The position numbers and the translations under genes are program-made. This document shows positions 2,835 through 63,087 of a stretch of DNA of 64,000 nucleotides, piece by piece (within the stretch, counting starts at the first letter, position 1; the number at the start of each line of letters is the position of its first letter). The stretch lies in NCBI GenBank assembly GCA_964016885.1, contig OZ024747.1, positions 14,632,001 to 14,696,000 of the forward strand, in the 5' to 3' direction. This DNA is from Eledone cirrhosa. Its lineage: Eukaryota. The notes beneath the pieces are model-generated. The model saw only the letters and a program-made list of their open reading frames with translations. It was not told where the DNA came from and did not search any database.

Positions 2835-3249
2835 GTAGGAGGTGAGTTTTATTGTAGTACAATAAAGCAATGCAGATATGGATAAGAAGCACTCTACAGT
2901 TTGTAGGACTGGAGTATACATAATATAAGATCAAAAGATGGTTAAAGGAGTTCCATGTATTTTATTATGCGCATTTCAAAAACAAACATCATCATGCAAT
3001 AATATTTGTGTTTTCATCAGATAAAACAGGAGAACATGATATGAAGGCTAAAAAACACTTGTGGATAGTGCAGTTTTAAATCAACATATATGTTGATTTA
3101 AAACTGCACTATCCACAAGTGTTTTTTAGCCTTCATATCATGTTCTCCTGTTTTATCTGATGAAAACACAAATATTATTGCATGATGATGTTTGTTTTTG
3201 AAATGCGCATAATAAAATACATGGAACTCCTTTAACCATCTTTTGATCT

Positions 3250-3257
<8 letters not shown>
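2835..3257. mobile_element. Non-autonomous palindromic PLE-type insertion, family A copy 1
   Basis: Apparently perfect palindrome 2920-3257, centre 3088/3089, plus an 85-nt tail at 2835-2919. Flanked by (TA)n. A second copy lies at 18190-18587. Confidence 0.85.
3146..3225 (+). ncRNA. Minimal type I hammerhead ribozyme (mirror copy on - strand 2952-3031)
   Basis: Stem I TGTTTTAT/ATAAAATA; CTGATGA 3157-63; stem II AAACACAAATA/TGTTTGTTTTT; GAAA 3200-03; self-complementary stem III TGCGCA; ATA triplet ending at 3211. Confidence 0.8.
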
Positions 3258-3287
<30 letters not shown>

Positions 3288-5430
3288 ATGTATATATATG
3301 TGTGTGTGTGTATATGTGTGCATGTATGAATATACTTTATTACTTTAATACGTGTGTCAGCTAATTCCAGCCAACAGGCTGAGACCATGTTGGTGACACA
3401 GCCATAATGAAACTATATATTGTAACCAACACTGCATGTGTTAACATGTGAAATTTAATTAGATATATTTAACAATGGAAAACTGTCGTATTTTTCTGTT
3501 TATTGAATTTCATGGAGAATAGAAATAAGTGGCTTCACCTGGAGTACAGTTTTAAACGTTCTGGTCGCATCAGCAACCAATTGCCGTGCTCTTTACTGGC
3601 AACTGGGAAATTGTATTTAAAGTCACTCGTAATAGATCTTTATTAGACCAGACGTACAGACTTTATATATCACGATTTATTAATAATCAGTTCTATTAAG
3701 TAAGTTACTAGTGCATTAGCCGTGTTTCTCTTCGATAACATAGTATACAATACAATGAACCTATAGATTTTTGTCGGCTCCGTATGTGTAAACTTATTAG
3801 ATTTGATCAGATGCATTGGATATCGGAAAAGGATGTATATTGTGTACGATGTTACCAAGTCTAGATGATTGCTGGTAAACCAGTTCGTCGTGAGTATTAA
3901 GTGGTGTGGAGGTAATAAGTGATATTTGGATTTAGAATGTTATCACGTAAGATGTAAGAATCAGATATAGGGTTTTGAAAAATATATATACACGAATGCA
4001 CACACACTCACACACATACACATACACACACACACATATAAACATAGATACATACTACACACCCACATACACACATATATATATATATATTTATATATAT
4101 ATATAACGAAGGAAATGTGGTAAGGAACCAGGTGGACCATAACGCACCAAAGTACTCAATACTTAGGGTAGTAGAGTGGGTAATTGGAACGAGTAGGACC
4201 CCGACGGCTGAGCTCAAGCCGTTTCGACGGCTAATTCTGGACTAAATGAACATTTTTATCCTGGTATTTGAATAGCCGAGCTTCTCAGGGGGTAATTCCA
4301 TATATGGTAAAAGTGATTGTCACAAGGATTGGTCAAAAGTTTGTTGTTGAGACATAATAATTCTATCATGGCAATTTGTGGAGGGAAGGGGTAGCTGAAC
4401 CTGCCAGTAGAAGAAAGAGGGAGAGGGGGTGGAAGAAACCCAGTCGTGCGTTGATAGTGCCAACTACGGCTGGGAAGGAGGTCAAAGAAGATACGGGGGG
4501 GGGGGGAGTGGAAACAATAAGTAAAACAATATGGGGTAAATATATAGAAAAATACCGGGAGTGTTAAAAAACAATTAAGTGGAAAAAAAAAAAACAATTT
4601 CTGGCTACTATAACCTAAGGACAGCTATCAAGTCTCTCACTGATACTGCTAGACTAAAGAAAGGTTTACTAGGTGGGACGGAATTATAATGAGACCCTTT
4701 TAAGAGGTATAAGTAAACAACCGAATATATCTTACGGTGACGGGTCAATAAGTGGGGGGCCAAAATACTAAATAAACTACCACGAAATAATAAATCAGAG
4801 TCCCGAGACCAGTGCGAAATAAAGCTTTCTACCCACAGGCACAAGGCCAGCAACCACCCAGTGCAAAAAAAAAAAAAAAACTAATGCGACATAATAATTC
4901 AGAATCCCGAAAAAGAATACTAATACTATCTGTAAGGGTGCCGCCACGATACAAAAATTCTAATGCAAACTACATAAATGCTCGTACGAAGTATATGTAA
5001 AATTTAATACGGAAAAATAATTTAGAATCCCCCCCCCCCTTATCCCCCCCAAAAAGATAAATAAATACTGATATACGAGAAATTAAAGCAAAGATACCAC
5101 TAAGAAATATAGAAAGCACGGAAAAGGTGCGGCCATCGGATAAGAAGGCTAGTATCCGGGGTCTAACACATCTGCTATAAAAAGCGGAGTCGGCCAAATC
5201 TATCATAGATTAGGGGAAGGGGGTGGTGGTACTGAGGCTACAAGGGACCGAGGGGCTGCCTCAGGTGGGCGAGAAAGTAAAAGGACGACAAAGAAGGAGG
5301 ACTGGGGTGGAAGGACTAGGGAAGGATGGGGGAAGAAGGAAATATAGAGGAAGTGATAAAAAGATATAGAAGATATTAGGTCTACCTTTGCAAGCAGGGG
5401 TTACCCGATACAAAATCGGCAAGTGGGGTG

Positions 5431-6045
5431 TTATAGGCCTAATCTACCCCCCCCCCCCAGGTCATTATGGGGTTTGAAGGCAAGGTAAGTCCTACACAAT
5501 CGGTGTTTACATGCAGTTACCAGTTCATCTTTCTTGTTTAGGAGTTGGTCCGTAGAGAACAGCATTTGTAAAATTTCCTCCGAGCATAAATTGCACGGAC
5601 GGCGTCCTCCCGTGTAAGAGTTGGCTCTGGACAGTAAGCTCCAAGTGATATCATAGGTAATATTGTTATCCTTGAGGTCCCATATGTGGCCCGAAAGTGT
5701 AGTGGCGTGACGCCGGGTTTCGGAAGGTATGTCTGTGTTGGTATAGCCGCGTCTTGAAGTCACGCGCGGTTAATCCTATATAGGCTTTGTTGGAGGTGTC
5801 CGTCCTCACGTTGCACTGGTATATCAGATTACGATCTCTGCATCTATTGTCGAGGGGGCAAATGGATCCATCAGGACAGTTGCACCTCCTGGTCGGCTCT
5901 CCACTGCTATTTTGGTTATTTCTTCCATGGGGGTTGAGTTTTTTGTTGTTAGAGGAGACGATGTTTTGTGCAAAGTTTGGTGTGGTGCTGTAGGAGAGTT
6001 TGATGGTATTTTTGTTAATTATGTTGTGGTAGCGCTGTTGTAGTG
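5431..6045 (-). pseudogene. PLE ORF C-terminus: linker plus GIY-YIG endonuclease, frameshifted near 5714
   Basis: Manual translation gives NKNTIKLSYSTTPN...RCNCPDGSICPLDNRC..LIYQC..KAYIGLTARDFKTRLYQHRH, then after a frameshift ATTLSGHIW..CNLCSEE..LLNKKDELVTACKH. These are PLE GIY-YIG and Cys/His motifs. Confidence 0.9.
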
Positions 6046-7120
6046 GGTAGACCTAATATCTTCTTCTATATCTTTTTATCACTTCCTCTATATTTCCTTC
6101 TTCCCCCCGTCCCTCCCTAGTCCTTCCACCCCAGTCCTCCTTCTTTGACGTCGTCCTTTTACTTTCTCGCCCATCTGAGGCAGCCCCTCGGTCCCTTGTA
6201 GCCTCAGTACCACCACCCCCTTCGCCTAATCTATGATAGATTTGGCTGACTCCGCTTTTTATAGCAGATGTGTTAGACCCCGGATACTAGCCTTCTTATC
6301 CGATGGCCGCACCTTTTCCGTGCTTTCTATATTTCTTAGTGGTATCTTTGCTTTAATTTCTCGTATATCAGTATTTATTTTTTTTGAGGGGGGGGGGGGA
6401 GTCTGAATTAATTTTCCGTATCAAATTTTACATATAATTCGTACGAGCATTTATGTAGTTTGCACTAGAATTTTTGTAGCGTGGCGGCACCCTTAGAGAT
6501 AGTATTAGTATTCTTTTTCGGGATTCTGAATTATTATGTCGTATTAGTTTTTTTTTTTGCACTGGGTGGTTGCTGCCCTTGTGCCTGGGGTAGAAACCTT
6601 TATTTCGCACTGGTCTCGGGACTCTGATTTATTATTTCGTGGTAGTTTCTTTAGTATTTTGGCCCCCCACTTGTTGACCCGTCACCGTAAGATATATTCG
6701 GTTGTTTACTTATACCTCTTAAAAGGGACTCATTATAATTCCGTCCCACCTAGTAAACCTTTCTTTAGTCTAGCAGTACCAGTGAGAGACTTGATAGCTG
6801 TCCTTAGGTTATAGTAACCAGAAATTGTTTTTTTTTTTTACACTTAAATGTTTTTTAACATTCCCGGTATTTTTCTATATATTTACCCCATATTGTTTTA
6901 CTTATTGTTTTCACCCTCCCCTCATAGTATCTTCTTTGACCTCCTGCCCAGCCGTTGTTGGCACTATCAACGCACGACTGGGTTTCTTCCACCCCGTCTC
7001 CCTCTTTCTTCTACTGGTAGGTTCAGCTACCCCTTCCCTCCACAAATTGCCATGATAGAATTATTATGTCTCAACAACAAACTTTTGACCAATCCTTGTG
7101 ACAATCTCTTTTACCATATA

Positions 7121-7235
7121 TGGAATTACCCCCTGAGAAGCTCGGCTATTCAAGTACCAGGATAAAAATGTTCATTTAGTCCAGAATTAGCCGTCGAAAC
7201 GGCTTGAGCTCAGCCGTCGGGGTCCTACTCGTTCC
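7121..7235 (+). ncRNA. Type I hammerhead-ribozyme-like fold with variant core CUGAGAA (mirror copy on - strand at ~4186-4300)
   Basis: Stem I ACCCC(7128-32)/GGGGT(7219-23) plus GGAA/TTCC; core CTGAGAA 7133-39; stem II CGGCTA/TAGCCG; GAAA 7196-99; stem III ACGGCT/AGCCGT; GTC triplet 7216-18. Confidence 0.72.
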
Positions 7236-7378
7236 TATATATATATATATATATACATATATACATGCACACACACACACACACACATACATATACATAG
7301 ATACTTACAAACACACACACACACACACCCACACACATGTATAGATATATATATATGTGCGTGTGTGTATGTATGTAT

Positions 7379-9326: not shown

Positions 9327-10008
9327 GGCAAAGTCAAAGGCAAAGTCAACCCGCCGAGGTTGACTTTGCCTTTCATCCTTACGGGGTCGATAAAATAAAG
9401 TACCAGTAATGCACTGGGTAATAAAGTACCAGTAATGCACTGGGTAGAGACAATTATTCTTATAATTATAAGGTGGTGGATTGGCAGTGTCAGTAGAGCG
9501 TCGGATGCCATGCTTTGGAGCATAGAGTTATGGCCCTTTAAATTCTGAGTTCAAATCCCGTCGAGATTAGCTTCGCCTTTCGTCCTCACGGGGTCGATAA
9601 AATAAAACACCAGTAATGCACTGGGGTAATTGCTGACCTTGTGCCAAAAGTAGAAACAATTATTATATATGGTGGATTGACAGTATCGGAAGAGAGTCGG
9701 ACGTCATGCTTTGCAGCATAAAGTTATGGACCTTTACGTTCTGAGTTCAGATCCCGTCGAGGTTAGCTTTGCTGTTGTTGGGGATGGTGATTTTGTTTAA
9801 ATAGAGATCAGATCTGATAAGCTATAACCCTCTCAAATCATATCCATAGAGTGCATTTCTAGCTGCTACTACGTATAGTATCCTTTATTATTAAACTGTA
9901 AAGGTTAACATTTCCTTTCATCCTTACGGGGTCGATAAAATAAAGCACCAGTAATGCACTGGGGTAATTGCTGGCCCTGTGCCAAAATAGAATAGAAATA
10001 CAATTATT
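9327..10008 (+). mobile_element. Cluster of 3-4 tRNA-derived SINE copies and fragments
   Basis: Repeated GAGTTCAAATCCC (B box)...CTTTGCCTTTCATCCTTACGGGGTCGATAAAATAAAGTACCAGT...GGCCTTGTGCC..TAGAAAC; full copy at 9471-9666. Confidence 0.9.
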
Positions 10009-11011
10009 ATTATCATTATGTAAAAGATATCATATAAAAAGAAATAATTATAATAAAAGAACCAATCAGAAATACATAACATCCTATACGTTCCTGAGAT
10101 ACAAAGTCAATTACACAGAATAAGACATTCAAACATACACAAATACAAACCGAGTGAGCTGCTTCCGCATTAAACAAATTTAAAGATTGATTTCAAAAAC
10201 AGAAGAAATGATAATAAAACATCAGGGAAAATAATATTTTTGTTCAAAATACATTTGTGTTTGCCTAAAAAATAAGAAAAATACCAAGAAGGCAACGACG
10301 TCATTTCCAGATCGTAATTGCTGTTACATTCAGGGTGGACAATATTGAAATCATTTGAATTCAATTGTTTGCTTCGTCTGAATAGTTTAAAAAAGGATAA
10401 TTTTTTAAAATTCTGTTTTGTTTTCTCAATGTAGAAGCATGGCTGAAAATATAAAATAAGGAATGCTCTTAAATTCTTGCAACGTTAATACTTCGCTCCA
10501 GCAATACTTGACAAAGAAATTAACGTGATTGTGTTTATTATTTCGTGATTTCTTAGCTTAATTAAACAATTTAAGAGAAATTTGCAACAATAATCTTAAT
10601 GAATTTTTTTTTAATTCAGCAGAATGAGGAAAATAATAGCCATAGAATAAAATACTATACATATCCATTAGCTATACATTTAGATAATCAAAATAAGGGA
10701 TACATCGCTTTTGGAATGTTGTACAATGGAAACGTTCTATTAAATTTAATTCGTATAGGCGAGGATCATAATTGACTGAATTATGTTACTGATAGTTTGC
10801 TTATCGATCCCGTAGAGATTAAATGTAAAGCGAGCCCCGATAGATTCAATGGAAAAAGTAATATTTATCTTACAGAATCACATATATGGAAAACATGTGT
10901 ATGCCTGTAGCCCGTGTGCGAATATGTGCTAGCATTTAGCGTTTATGTGGGTATATGACCCATAACATGTATGTATACACACGTGTATGTATACCCCCCC
11001 CCCACACACAC

Positions 11012-13643: not shown

Positions 13644-14109
13644 TACAATATTAAATAAATGGAAACTATATTTATAAAACCATATTTATTTCATTATATA
13701 TATTTCGGGGATATCATATTAACAATATGCTATGCCTTCCTCAGACAAAATACAATATAAACAGTTTTATAGATAAATAGATTCGACATACCGTTATAAC
13801 ACCGACTTCCATTTGAAGAGGTTTACGCTGGCAGGCGTAAACCTCTTCAAATGGAAGTCGATGTTATAACGGTATGTCGAATCTATTTATCTATAAAACT
13901 GTTTATATTGTATTTTGTCTGAGGAAGGCATAGCATATTGTTAATATGATATCCCCGAAATATATATAATGAAATAAATATGGTTTTATAAATATAGTTT
14001 CCATTTATTTAATATTGTAAATATACTCCAATTATTTGTCGAGTGCTTTTATATCAGTTATAAATATTTACTAGTTGTAACCCAACAATTTTAAATATAA
14101 CTTTCCATG
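13644..14109. mobile_element. Palindromic PLE-type insertion, family B
   Basis: 185-bp arms at 13644-13828 and 13835-14019 (one mismatch seen), 6-nt spacer, and a 90-nt tail at 14020-14109. Flanked by (TA)n. Confidence 0.85.
13911..13976 (+). ncRNA. Minimal type I hammerhead ribozyme (mirror copy on - strand 13687-13752)
   Basis: Stem I TATTTTGT/ATGAAATA; CTGAGGA 13919-25; stem II GG..ATA..CATATT/AATATG..TAT..CC; GAAA 13957-60; palindromic stem III TATATA; ATA triplet ending at 13968. Confidence 0.75.
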
Positions 14110-14212
14110 TATATATATATATAAAAATAGTGAGAAATAGACGATTATTAGGAAGAAAAAATACATTTTTTTCCCTTTTATATCTGTATGAATATATATA
14201 TATTCGTATATA

Positions 14213-14288: not shown

Positions 14289-14470
14289 TATATATATATG
14301 TGTTTTTCAGTGTGGTCTGCCCTTGGTGATAGGGACCGTACAGTAGATAGAACTCTGATGGATCTGATGGCGAGTAATCCAGTTAAATCCATAGAAAAAT
14401 TCTGTGTCTCGCTGAGTTAATTCGTTAGATACAGAGTCAGATATTAGGTATTAAATTAACAATTAAAATA

Positions 14471-14655
14471 GGGCGGTGGATTGGCTGTATCGGTAGAGGG
14501 TCGGACGCCATGCTTTACAGCATAGTTACGTCCCTTTACGATCTGAGTTCAAATCCCGCCGAGGTTAACTTTGCCTTTGATCCTTACGGGGTCGATAAAA
14601 TAAAGTACCAGTAATGAACTGGGTAATTTCTGGCCTTGTGCCTAAAGTAGAAACA
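14471..14655 (+). mobile_element. tRNA-derived SINE with 20-bp TSD
   Basis: A/B-box-like head; TSD TTAAATTAACAATTAAAATA at 14451-70 and 14657-76. Confidence 0.92.
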
Positions 14656-14678
14656 ATTAAATTAACAATTAAAATATG

Positions 14679-14862
14679 TGTTTCTACTATTGGCACAAGG
14701 CCAGTAATTACCCAGTACATTACTGGTATTTTATTTTATCGACCCCGTGAGGATGAAAGGCAAAGTTAACCTCGGCGGGATTTGAACTCAGAATGGAAAG
14801 GGCCGTAACTCTATGCGTCAAAGCATGGCGTCCGACCCTCTACCGATACTGCCAATCCACCG
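14679..14862 (-). mobile_element. tRNA-derived SINE, tail-to-tail with the previous copy
   Basis: Reverse complement of the same family; flanking CAATTAAAATA at 14666-76 and 14869-79. Confidence 0.92.
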
Positions 14863-17744: not shown

Positions 17745-18587
<843 letters not shown>

Positions 18588-18664
18588 GCATATATATATA
18601 TATACATATATATAAGTATGTATGTATACGTACATACATATATGTATACAGACGTACAGTAGCA

Positions 18665-19373: not shown

Positions 19374-19614
19374 ATAATATGGAAAACAAAGAATCTGCGA
19401 TGCATTGGAACACAGTTTATTAACGTATTACAACTGTTTCTCCCGAGAACAGTTCAAGGTACTCGCCGGAGAAACAATTGTAATACGTCAATAAATTTTG
19501 TTCCGATGCATCATTGATTCTTCGTTTTCCATATTATTATACTCATCTCCGTAGGAACATAGAGTGCTCAACTGGCATACTGCCTATGAACGCATCCAAG
19601 CAACCTTACTACAA
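19374..19614. mobile_element. Short inverted PLE-type insertion, family C (hammerhead 3' half only)
   Basis: Diverged 70-bp arms at 19374-19443 and 19468-19537; GAAA-C...G-TC-AATAAA remnant; tail with ACTC (19541) and GAGTGCT (19562), ending in (TA)n. Confidence 0.65.
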
Positions 19615-19632
19615 ATATATATATATATGTGT

Positions 19633-35259: not shown

Positions 35260-35407
35260 CATAACATACATCTATACATACATATATACATAGCATACAT
35301 CAATACACACACACACACTTCACACACACCACACACACACACATATATATATAAAGAATTAGTATATCTACCAACATATATATACAGATGCATACCTATG
35401 CTAGCAA

Positions 35408-35961
35408 ATATATTGGTTTTGTCTTAGTAACTTTGTGGTTCAATGCAAGGGGATGCAGTACAATTATATGAAAGACGTAAAATAAGAAAATTATAAAAAT
35501 TGACTTACTTACTAATATTTCACTCCAACTAATTAGTTTTTGAAAGGGAATAAACATGGTTTACGAATGGAACGCATGGAGAAGGCCTTTCGTCATCAGG
35601 AAGTCTATTCTCAGCTAAGTTCCCAGGCGATGCGTGGACACAGAGAACTTATACAAAAATAATTCAGTGGATGGAAAAAAGCAAGCGTGGACTAAATTCC
35701 AAGACATTGAAAAAATCACTGCCTACTTGGTCGGTGGCAAATTCAAAAGAATCAATCACGTGACATCGAAGTTAATCAGTGAGGAGTGGGGTGTTAAGAA
35801 GGCAGTAGCCGAACTATTACTATGAACTATAGTAGCAGTTTTGGCAAATTGCGTTCCATTCGGAAACCATGTTTATTCCCTTTCAGAAACTAATTAGTTG
35901 GAGTGAAATATTAGTAAGTAAGTTAATTTTTATAATTTTCCTATTTTACGTCTTTCATATA
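35408..35961. mobile_element. Inverted-repeat insertion, family E, with a degenerate hammerhead-like fold on the - strand
   Basis: 112-bp arms at 35465-35576 and 35850-35961. The right arm ends in (TA)n and the left arm has a ~57-nt extension. Minus-strand CTGATGA at 35599-35593; GAAA is intact in the right arm (35863-66). Confidence 0.6.
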
Positions 35962-54866: not shown

Positions 54867-55030
54867 TACATGGACACACTGGAAGAGGAAGACCAAGGTT
54901 AACGTATGTTGATGCCCTAAGGACAGACACTGGTCTGTTGGAGACGCAGGACATGGCAGCGATAATGAGGGACAGAGACCGCTGGAGAGAACTCGTTCAT
55001 CGATCTCGGGAATTTTACCCGCCCTAGAAT
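54867..55030 (+). mobile_element. RTE-clade LINE 3' end (same family)
   Basis: Near-identical to 17907-18070. Confidence 0.88.
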
Positions 55031-55060
55031 ATATATATATATACATGCATACATAGACAC

Positions 55061-59705: not shown

Positions 59706-59859
59706 AACGAAGGAAATGTGGTAAGGAACCAGATGGACCACAACGCACCAAAGTACTCAATACTTAGGGTGCTGAGCTCAAGCCGTTTAGACGGGTAATT
59801 CTGTCCAGAATTAACCGTCGAAACGGCTTGAGCTCAGCCGTCGGGGTCCTACTCGTTCC
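59706..59859. mobile_element. Miniature inverted copy of PLE family N
   Basis: Same two termini as 4105-7235 (AACGAAGGAAATG... and ...CTACTCGTTCC), with an internal deletion and an inversion near 59802. Sits in (TA)n. Confidence 0.88.
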
Positions 59860-59867
59860 TATATATA

Positions 59868-61158
59868 CAGGGTGTTCGGGATAAATTGGACAGTTTCAGA
59901 AAAAGTGCTTGGTATCTACAAAATTTATTTGATTTAAAAGAAATTCAATGGACAAGGAAATTACACTATTGTCAAAGAGTTTTACTCAAAATAACCGCCA
60001 TTGGCGTCTATTACAGCCTCAATCCGGGCCCGGAACCTGGAGCAAACTGATTTTACACTTTCCCTGGGAAGGCCCTCAAAACTACTTTAATTCTGTCGAT
60101 TAACTGGGCTTTTATAGTACTGGCATGGCGATTGGTGTCTTTCTCTACAGCGCCCCATACATAATAGTCCATCGGGTTAAGATCAGGGGAGTTCGAAGGC
60201 CAAACATTGGGACTGGTGTAGTCGTAAAATTGGCTGACAACCATTTTTGACTTTTCCCCGAGGTGTGGCAGGGGGCCGAATCCTGCTGCCATACATACGG
60301 CCTATTATTGGCTACCCTTGTTATCCAGGGCTTAACTACAGTGGTTAGCAATTCCACGTAGGCATCTGAATTCAACCTGAGACCCTGTTTGAAAAAATGC
60401 GGAGGCATCACATCACCCTCGGAGGACACACATCCAAAAACCATGACAGTTTGGAAAAATTTAGTCTGAATGACTCGAGGAGTGTCCTTTGAACTGTATG
60501 CAAGTCATCTGTTATTCTGCGTGTTGTGTTTTTGATCTTGGCAACAGTTTTTCTCATCGGAAAAGAACCAGATTGTTTGTGCTTCAGCAGGATATTTCAC
60601 TTTGCTCAGAAGTTTCTTCGCCTTTGTCAGACGATTTTCGCGGGCCTTTTCTGTGAGAAGTTGACCTCTGCGACGCTTGTATGAGTAGTAGCGAAGGTCT
60701 TCATTGAGTGCAATTTTCATAGTAGAGACTGAAACATTCAATTCACGCGACAAAGACCGAATTCCGATGCCAGGGTCCTCCAACACTTTTTTCTGCAGAT
60801 TTTCGATGAATTCTGCTGTGCGAGAGAAATCAGATCTTCTGTTATGTTTCTTTCTTCTAGCCACAGCCTCGTAGTCTCCATTGCAATTCTCCAGTTCATG
60901 CCGGATTGTTTTTACAGTGTTCAGGGAGCATTGAGCAGCGACCATAATCTCTTTATTTTGATGGCCGGCGCGAATCATCATGATACAAGTTATTCTCTTC
61001 CATGATTCAGGTGGCTCCCAGTCATCCATTCTCGTTGTCATCACATATATGAATGAAGGAGGGTTTAAACTTTCAAATAAAGCCTAGTGGGCATGAATGA
61101 ATTTAAAACATCTGAAAAAACAACCAAATATTATTCTGTCAAATTTATCCCGAACACC

Positions 61159-61955: not shown

Positions 61956-62446
61956 TCTAAGGCGGGTAAAATTCCCGAGATCCATGGACGAGTTCTCTCC
62001 AGCGGTCTCTGTCCCTCATTATCGCTGCCATGTCCTGCATCTCCAACAGACCAGTGTCTGTCCTTAGGGCATCGACATACGTTAACCTTGGTCTTCCTCT
62101 TCTAGTGTGTCCATGTAGGGGCTCCCAAAGGAGTACTGAGTGCAATGTCAACTTTGGATGTGGTTGAGAGGAAGAGCAAGGCCTGGGTGGCGTGCCACAG
62201 CTTAAGATCGGTGTGGAAGTCGGACCTGCGTAGAGACCTGAAAATCCGCATCTTCATTGCTGTAGTGGAGTCTGTGCTGCTGTATGGGTCTGAGACTTGG
62301 ACACTGACCAAGAAACTCACTCAGATGGTGGATGGGTGCTACACGAGAATGTTGAGGATGGCTCTGAACATTAATCAGTATACACTAAGGATGAAAAACT
62401 TAGAGCTGTATGGGAGCATCCCAAAAGTCAGCTCAAAAGTGATACA
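61956..62446 (-). mobile_element. RTE-clade LINE 3' end with inverted upstream segment
   Basis: Minus strand 61956-62160 reads HPKLTLHSVLLWEP to the 3' end. Plus strand 62157-62446 reads DVVERKSKAW..VESVLLYGSETWTLTK..DGCYTRMLRMALN. Confidence 0.9.
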
Positions 62447-63087
62447 TACATATATATATACATATATAAATATATATATATATGAATATATGTTATTATA
62501 TTATTTACAGTCTGAGTTCAAATCCCGCCGAGGTTAACTTTGCTTTTCATTCCTACGGGATCGATAAAATAAAGTACAAGTAATACACTGGGATAATTGC
62601 TGGCCTTGTGCCGAAAGTAGAAACAATTATATTATTATTGCAAAGCGTATATAATTGCCTTAGTAAATGTACTAGTGTTTGACTATTTAATTATATATAT
62701 ACGTATGCGTGTGTATGCTACTTTTTATGTCTATCTTATATTAACACATATTCAGTTGTAATTTGATGGAAGTCACTTTCGAATTGTATTAATAAATACT
62801 AAGGTGTGTACTAACAGCTGAAACTTCTTTGAAATTTCCCTTTTGTATTTCTATTCATTTTATTTAAATCTCATATTATTTCTGTTTTCTTTTTATTGAG
62901 CATTATATCCTCAAATAATATAAGAAAATGGAACCAATGTGTCACTTTTCAAATATCCTATTAAAAGATCCATTGTATGAATTTTTTTTCTTTTTTGAAG
63001 AAGGGGTATACAATACACGCACACACACACACATATATATATGTGTATGCATGTGTGTATGCATGTATACATATATGTGTATGTATG

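Follow-up and report, generated by a model that had tools for sequence, protein, structure and literature searches.

Paired, covarying hairpins lie behind the two alternative 3' ends of Hydra-like Penelope-like elements in Eledone cirrhosa

Small RNA stem-loops that bind a reverse transcriptase (RT) and set the place where copying starts or stops are known from several systems, such as the 3' stem-loops of LINEs and SINEs, the epsilon signal of hepadnaviruses and the template-boundary element of telomerase. Epsilon is also a bulged hairpin with two stems, and its bulge serves as the template of protein priming; the stem-loops of LINEs are found 5' of the start and become part of the copy, and it is the stop that the telomerase element sets. 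The RT of Penelope-like elements is the sister of the telomerase RT, TERT, and the tail and the inverted insertions of these elements have long been an open question. For the Poseidon RT, a predicted dimer, it was described that both target strands are cut and extended, and that in vitro two internal start sites bound the tail, in an AC-rich stem-loop at the junction of the pseudo-LTR and the ORF (Frangieh et al. 2024, PMC11167929). Elements of the Hydra clade were described with CxxC and CxH around conserved E and N residues, and no CCHH (Craig et al. 2021, PMC8557442).

Here we analyze a stretch of 64,000 nucleotides of the E. cirrhosa genome (GCA_964016885.1, contig OZ024747.1, positions 14,632,001 to 14,696,000; hereafter the window), in which a first-pass annotation had pointed out a short hairpin, ACTC pairing with GAGT, just past the inverted arm in element families A, B, C and N. 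Each motif site belongs to an insertion in (TA)n that consists of two 3' fragments placed head to head. The 3' ends of the copies are confined to two fixed positions, called here the short end (S) and the long end (T). One hairpin (H1) is located a few bases behind S; a second (H2), which the annotation had missed, is located a few bases behind T and is visible only where the pseudo-LTR continues into the ORF. The features of the window are the following.

2835..3257: head-to-head insertion of family A, T arm on the minus strand with H1 at 2915-2888, S arm on the plus strand
2888..2915, minus strand: family A H1, upper stem CAG/CTG, bulge TA
4105..7238: head-to-head insertion of family N, T arm on the minus strand, including the ORF's 3' part, and S arm on the plus strand
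4151..4177, minus strand: family N H1, upper stem TACT/AGTA, bulge TT
5666..6052, minus strand: fragment of the family N ORF, with the CxCX5C linker and the start of GIY-YIG
13644..13823, minus strand: inverted arm of family B, ending at S in (TA)n
13919..13960, plus strand: putative hammerhead core (CTGAGGA...GAAA) in the family B pseudo-LTR, a pattern match without Rfam match
14018..14019, plus strand: TA of the family B S end, 7-6 nt before H1, where the inverted arm joins (TA)n
14020..14112, plus strand: family B tail between S and T, about 91 nt long, with (TA)n adjoining the T end
14025..14047, plus strand: family B H1, lower stem ACTC (14025-28) and GAGT (14041-44), upper stem CAA/TTG, 2-nt bulge TC at 14039-40, trailing GCT
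18190..18592: second insertion of family A, H1 at 18271-18244 on the minus strand
19374..19615: head-to-head insertion of family C, H1 at 19541-19568 on the plus strand
19541..19568, plus strand: family C H1, upper stem decayed in this copy
35350..35956: head-to-head insertion of family E, T and S ends in (TA)n, 530-bp non-coding unit
35438..35461, minus strand: family E H1 variant, lower stem GTTC/GAAC (GTAC here), upper stem TGCA/TGCA, bulge TT
59706..59862: mini-insertion of family N, T arm with H1 partly deleted

The H1 positions of A (both copies), B, C and N are those that the annotation had given. It had placed ACTC 3-8 nt past the end of the inverted arm, and we find it at 3-9 nt.

These elements share with Poseidon PAc two fixed 3' ends that bound an optional tail, AT-rich targets and the involvement of a stem-loop. 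They differ from it in clade and sequence; Poseidon has one stem-loop, with the starts described inside it, and the available parts of PMC11167929 report no covariation or cross-family motif. The tail is 30-40 nt in Poseidon (PMC11167929), whereas here it is 57-105 nt, lies 5' of the ATG, and is accompanied by two homologous bulged hairpins, each located 3' of its end.

Family N is represented at locus L197 (G000:C1:91476000-91484500) by a head-to-tail array that has a repeat period of about 3,543 bp, contains two unbroken ORFs (717-719 aa) and is likely a source element, and family A by an ORF of 809 aa (L199). Both ORFs include an RT and, at the C terminus, a GIY-YIG domain, with YRDD and IY..YIG/YFG motifs; their linkers, CNCPDRSIC in N and CNCRIKNKC in A, have the form CxCX5C and are joined by CNLC and by CKH or CLH, which matches the description of the Hydra clade. 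SDKT (DKT for DKG) is present in N, A and B, as is RWR or RWT where that description has RWK. The unit of N measures about 3.5 kb and that of A about 3.7 kb, against 'generally' less than 3 kb in the clade. Insertion into (TA)n is a trait of the clade (PMC8557442) and is present here, beside RT plus C-terminal GIY-YIG, the CxCX5C linker and DKT. The clade also has a canonical hammerhead ribozyme in its pseudo-LTR; here a core pattern was found in A and B and not in N, and a search of five loci gave no Rfam hammerhead match. Pfam assigned no family to the ORFs of N or A, and no relative was found in viral contigs. By these motifs, together with a match by eye of RT3-4 to Hydra-2_Amil, the families resemble Hydra-clade Penelope-like elements; the Nematis clade had been a first guess and was dropped after consulting Fig. 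S2 and section 11 of Craig et al. 2021.

Protein identity is 38% between A and N, 52% between A and B and 40% between B and N, and 38-49% to two copies related to C. In the window the 3' regions of A, B, C and N gave no cross-family alignment beyond the motif, the best blastn match (E 0.06-0.1) falling on the motif itself. Judged from these comparisons the families are related but old. The annotation had called them unrelated, which is corrected here to homologous, deeply diverged and Hydra-like; they are not recent relatives in which the match would be simple homology.

The hairpin has the form RCTC, an upper stem-loop, a 2-nt bulge (TN) and GAGY-RCT, and both of its stems covary. Covariation was counted with scripts that anchor both stem ends, in 23 cluster representatives that were clustered by downstream flank and obtained with a scan pattern that demanded neither a bulge nor an upper stem; 30 of the source loci had, however, been fetched with a TN-bulge pattern. 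The three positions after RCTC and the three before the 2-nt bulge form Watson-Crick pairs in 47 of 69 cases, against 13-18 when the bulge is set to 0, 1, 3 or 4 nt, and against a mean of 23.8 and a maximum of 38 in 10,000 partner shuffles, figures that are not probabilities, the representatives being related. The outer pair is A-T in 14 representatives and G-C in nine, with none broken, and the first base of the bulge is T in 21 of the 23. The proposal that the loop varies freely thus does not hold: within it lies an upper stem with compensatory changes, set off by a bulge of 2 nt on the 3' side. In family C, the upper stem decayed in the window is TGCTC/GAGCA in most other copies.

The motif is enriched in the window: ACTC-N4-30-GAGTRCT occurs five times there, and 100 shuffles gave 0.63 on average and never more than 3. 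In the whole genome (G000, 3.0 Gb), where counts are repeat copy numbers and not independent events, TATACTC-N8-24-GAGTRCT is matched 26,973 times and its reversed control 279 times; for ACTC-N9-21-TN-GAGTRCT, with an A-T outer pair, the figures are 142,936 and 4,257. The form with a G-C outer pair gives 23,284 against 549, and that with an A.C outer mismatch 4,030 against 1,404; outer G.T pairs were left out of the counts because the inner GCTC of family C is a confounder. At G000:C1:14235091-14252855, 3' fragments of family N form a tandem array with the same A.C mismatch in every H1, which inflates the mismatch count.

RNAalifold found no structure in a MAFFT alignment of 42 hairpins, which MAFFT had right-aligned with end gaps; lone hairpins fold weakly (z -2.5 to +0.8), and in families A and N the predicted minimum-energy fold differs from the motif hairpin. 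Among 43 hairpins the ratio of G.U to A.C in the upper stem is 8:6, and it therefore does not decide between RNA and single-stranded DNA, nor between a sense and an antisense fold. An Rfam search of five loci gave 39 matches at E<=1, all under the gathering score and none on the hairpins; nearly all were microRNA models on TA repeats.

H2 belongs to the same class (GCTC/GAGC) and precedes the ATG. No ORF-linked junction of A, B, N, C or further families lacks it behind T; in the ORF-linked copies of family B it lies 3-4 nt past T. We scored 199 3' ends of A, B and N in alignments of at least 40 nt and at least 88% identity. All 161 ends joined to TA are located at -14..+2 of H1 (64) or H2 (97), none of them beyond T; the remainder comprises 13 that read through H2, 10 near S or T without a TA tract, and 15 elsewhere, also without a TA tract. 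The same was observed for every TA-joined end (65/65) in copies that had not been fetched by the search of their own family. The references of A, B and N contain 25, 42 and 16 TA sites, of which only 4, 3 and 3 adjoin a hairpin. A lone exception is a TA-joined end at -18 relative to the minor reference B2. The tail length equals the H1-H2 spacing, 78 in N, 90 in A and 91 in B. The distance from H1 to the TA is not constant, the TA being found at -8 to -5, and there is no null for the priming TA.

The hairpins recur in sequences from other sources. Of 49 marine-metagenome loci picked by protein alignment alone, 15 include the start of the ORF together with DNA before it, and in these we scanned the 140 nt upstream. 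They contain 20 strict hairpins, against one in antisense and 0.04 in shuffles; eight loci have two, four have one and three have none. The proteins of these loci have a median identity of 48%, with more than 70% in 6 of 91 pairs. The upper stem is paired in 41 of 60 positions (shuffles 21.3, maximum 35), and a TA starts at -8..-5 in 19 of the 20 hairpins, a count without a null. By eye, L206, L213, L221 and L227 have variant second copies, two of them with GTTC/GAAC. The three resolvable 3' ends fall 2-3 nt before H2, H1 and H2; those of L201, L205 and L207 were not traceable. On one metagenome contig (L203 2546-2679), two different Hydra families with twin hairpins each abut by their tails within a single short (TA)n tract.

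Six published Hydra consensi (File S7 of Craig et al. 2021) were inspected by eye. The exact motif is present at the 3' end of Hydra-2_Amil and Hydra-2_Ajap, and twice before the ATG of Hydra-1_Ajap; Hydra-1_Crog has variants, GCCC/GGGC at its 5' end and one with a single mismatch at its 3' end. No motif was seen by eye in the Hydra-1_Amil and Hydra-1_Obim consensi, both of which appear to stop before the tail. The consensi with the motif include coral and sea-cucumber ones, so the hairpin is conserved across phyla. The available text of PMC8557442 has no description of the hairpin, and gives the tail as 30-40 bp and as a product of endonuclease (EN) resolution. Nor did full-text searches of the open literature, or the available parts of PMC4209133, PMC3846280, PMC5737381, PMC13282606 and bioRxiv 10.64898/2026.07.22.740005, yield a description of the motif. 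Two GCTC...GAG(T/C)RCT strings in Naiad consensi were left uncounted, having no clear bulge-stem form, and the single Neptune-like 3' end considered (L039) has no motif.

Family E, an abundant 530-bp tandem unit with no ORF longer than 72 codons, was looked at after the two-hairpin prediction had been made; it had been identified in the window (35350-35956) by a TACT at the equivalent place, which according to the annotation was all that it had there. The window copy differs by one base from a variant hairpin with GTTC/GAAC, GTTC-TGCA...TGCA-TT-GAAC, whose lower stem is intact in 30 of the 33 genomic copies scored. Its H2 is TCTC-CAAA...TTTG-TT-GAGC, with the outer pair mismatched, and both hairpins are without the trailing RCT. 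The 54 ends from 24 loci comprise 20 S, 14 T, 18 reading into H2 and two others. Genome-wide the pattern GTWC/GAAC is not enriched (11,706 against 10,876 in the control), and therefore the variant rests on family E and the two metagenome copies only. Hairpin and end features, and not a protein, tie this family to Hydra; it is a candidate non-autonomous partner or retrozyme-like element. Family E (L258) also carries the string CTGATGACGAAA.

From the above, the twin hairpins are a real, covarying, clade-wide paired cis-signal. The annotation had proposed a cis-acting boundary signal for RT binding or for the priming or template-switch site: its boundary character is supported by the fixed distance, the covariation and the conservation across phyla, and its action in RNA and the binding of the RT are suggested by analogy with Poseidon (PMC11167929). 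We consider a role as RT start signal the best reading, and it is probable that the bulged hairpins act in RNA as docking signals from which copying starts at the UA just upstream of each stem. In such a mechanism the GIY-YIG endonuclease would nick a (TA)n target on both strands, one RT would start at S behind H1 and another at T behind H2, and at each start the 3' TA of the target would pair with the UA of the template. The two cDNAs would be joined at their 3' ends into a head-to-head insertion with one S and one T end, and the optional tail would simply be the H1-H2 spacing. Compared with the LINE, epsilon and telomerase signals, this hairpin would be located 3' of the start, would not be copied, and is paired. 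Given that position, only RNA continuing into the next unit could start at T; such RNA, running from the pseudo-LTR into the following unit, could come from a 5' pseudo-LTR with a jump, from a tandem array such as L197 or from a circle as proposed in PMC4209133. This requirement would explain the need for more-than-unit arrangements. The metagenome loci with no strict hairpin (3/15) or only one (four) count against docking, as do the weak folding of lone hairpins, the variable H1-to-TA distance, the missing RCT and mismatched H2 outer pair of family E, and the different sequence and in-stem starts of the Poseidon stem-loop.

The same junctions could be produced if the hairpins formed in single-stranded DNA, in the cDNA or the second strand, and guided the GIY-YIG endonuclease to cut at the preceding TA, trimming a longer intermediate to S or T. 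This EN-mediated resolution, to which the tail is ascribed in PMC8557442, agrees with junctions at TA, the EN target, with a Penelope tail that Frangieh et al. (PMC11167929) cite as needed for EN recognition of plasmid DNA, and with wobble counts that do not favor RNA. We regard it as unlikely, given that S and T are where priming joined the element to the target DNA, that copying of H2 needs a start further downstream, where no TA-joined end was seen, and that the in vitro starts of Poseidon coincide with the tail ends (PMC11167929).

The fixed distance and the conserved unpaired bases, the bulge U and the trailing RCU, would also suit a motif that directs cleavage of the RNA, by itself or by a host nuclease, 4-7 nt upstream, which would leave RNA 3' ends at S and T for end-primed target-primed reverse transcription. 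To our knowledge, the motif is too small for the known 5'-cleaving ribozymes, and it has no Rfam match. Penelope RNAs already use ribozymes (PMC4209133), yet in Poseidon unprocessed RNA is the main substrate (PMC11167929), and cleavage seems very improbable to us.

The head-to-head pairs bear on how the two arms arise. Script labels gave S+T for 36 of 41 pairs, and inspection for 39: the three labelled 'S+S', in which one arm aligned through the whole tail, proved to be S+T, and the two T+T pairs are divergent read-through pairs. Near-zero-gap head-to-head palindromes are common, and self-priming was proposed for such structures (PMC3846280), so H1 might be a stop or template-switch site at which the second strand of a T-primed cDNA that folds back or self-primes would halt, giving the short arm. 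That leaves the H2 behind T unexplained, and a fold-back copy cannot extend 5' past its template, yet among the pairs whose arms are unequal at the 5' end by more than 10 nt, it is the S arm that extends further in six (L006 being uncertain) and the T arm in five. Both arms were therefore likely primed separately; a fold-back origin is most doubtful, and between the priming and template-switch sites of the annotation priming is favored, there being a hairpin behind the other end too. In the second family A insertion (18190..18592) the S arm extends 5' to -171 and the T arm to -146, and in the family N mini-insertion (59706..59862) the S arm stops 5 nt before the H1 position. That the motif is an inherited sequence without function is hardly tenable and already largely refuted by covariation: the families are homologous, but the flanks are unalignable, both stems show compensatory changes, and the motif is kept twice per element, in the non-coding family E and across phyla.

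The 5' stops of the fragments are clustered, at -170..-173 relative to H1 in 13 of 30 incidental fragments of family A, at -61..-70 in 25 of 29 of family N, and at about -197 and -495 in family B. These clusters (window 3085-3090 and 59803-59810, and A, N and B loci) fall at the border of the low-complexity 3' UTR and the conserved pseudo-LTR, and may correspond to the transcription start, that is an RNA 5' end, or to a strong RT stop. The hammerhead cut site was rejected as their source: the core ends at -58 (A) and -64 (B), and the stops are at -172 and about -197. An extension of the docking reading, which we put forward tentatively as somewhat less likely than its negation, is that a dimeric telomerase-like RT on two hairpins near the 5' end of the transcript primes both cut strands at once and produces short 'strong-stop' cDNAs with a fixed 5' limit, about -172 in A and about -65 in N; these would fuse into mini-palindromes or jump to the downstream pseudo-LTR and copy the ORF, in a Hydra-wide, LTR-like cycle that units such as family E would hijack.

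A motif of 20-30 nt at a fixed distance behind both ends is a mutable handle, and changes of spacing predict shifted starts and an altered tail length. The twin hairpins can serve as a clade-wide diagnostic of element boundaries and non-autonomous partners, and if they load the RT, the hairpin would be a compact tag to program internal initiation.

Other features were observed beside these. Behind the hammerhead cores of A and B stand short palindromes, TGCGCA and TATATATA (window 3204-3210 and 13961-13968), as in dimer-type minimal hammerheads. An abundant repeat (L277, L281, L284) has a motif-like hairpin with a 1-nt bulge, GTTCC-GTTGAT...ATCAAC-T-GGAAC-ACT, away from (TA)n. A very abundant SINE-like repeat is found in the window at 9350-10010, 14470-14862, 40249, 47553, 56797 and 62504, its copy at 14474-14862 forming a head-to-head palindrome without the motif. 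RTE-like LINE 3' ends are joined to (TA)n at 17791-18071, 54867-55031 and 61956-62537, one of them with a short inversion, and a Tc1/mariner-like transposase fragment is located at 60505-61083 on the minus strand.
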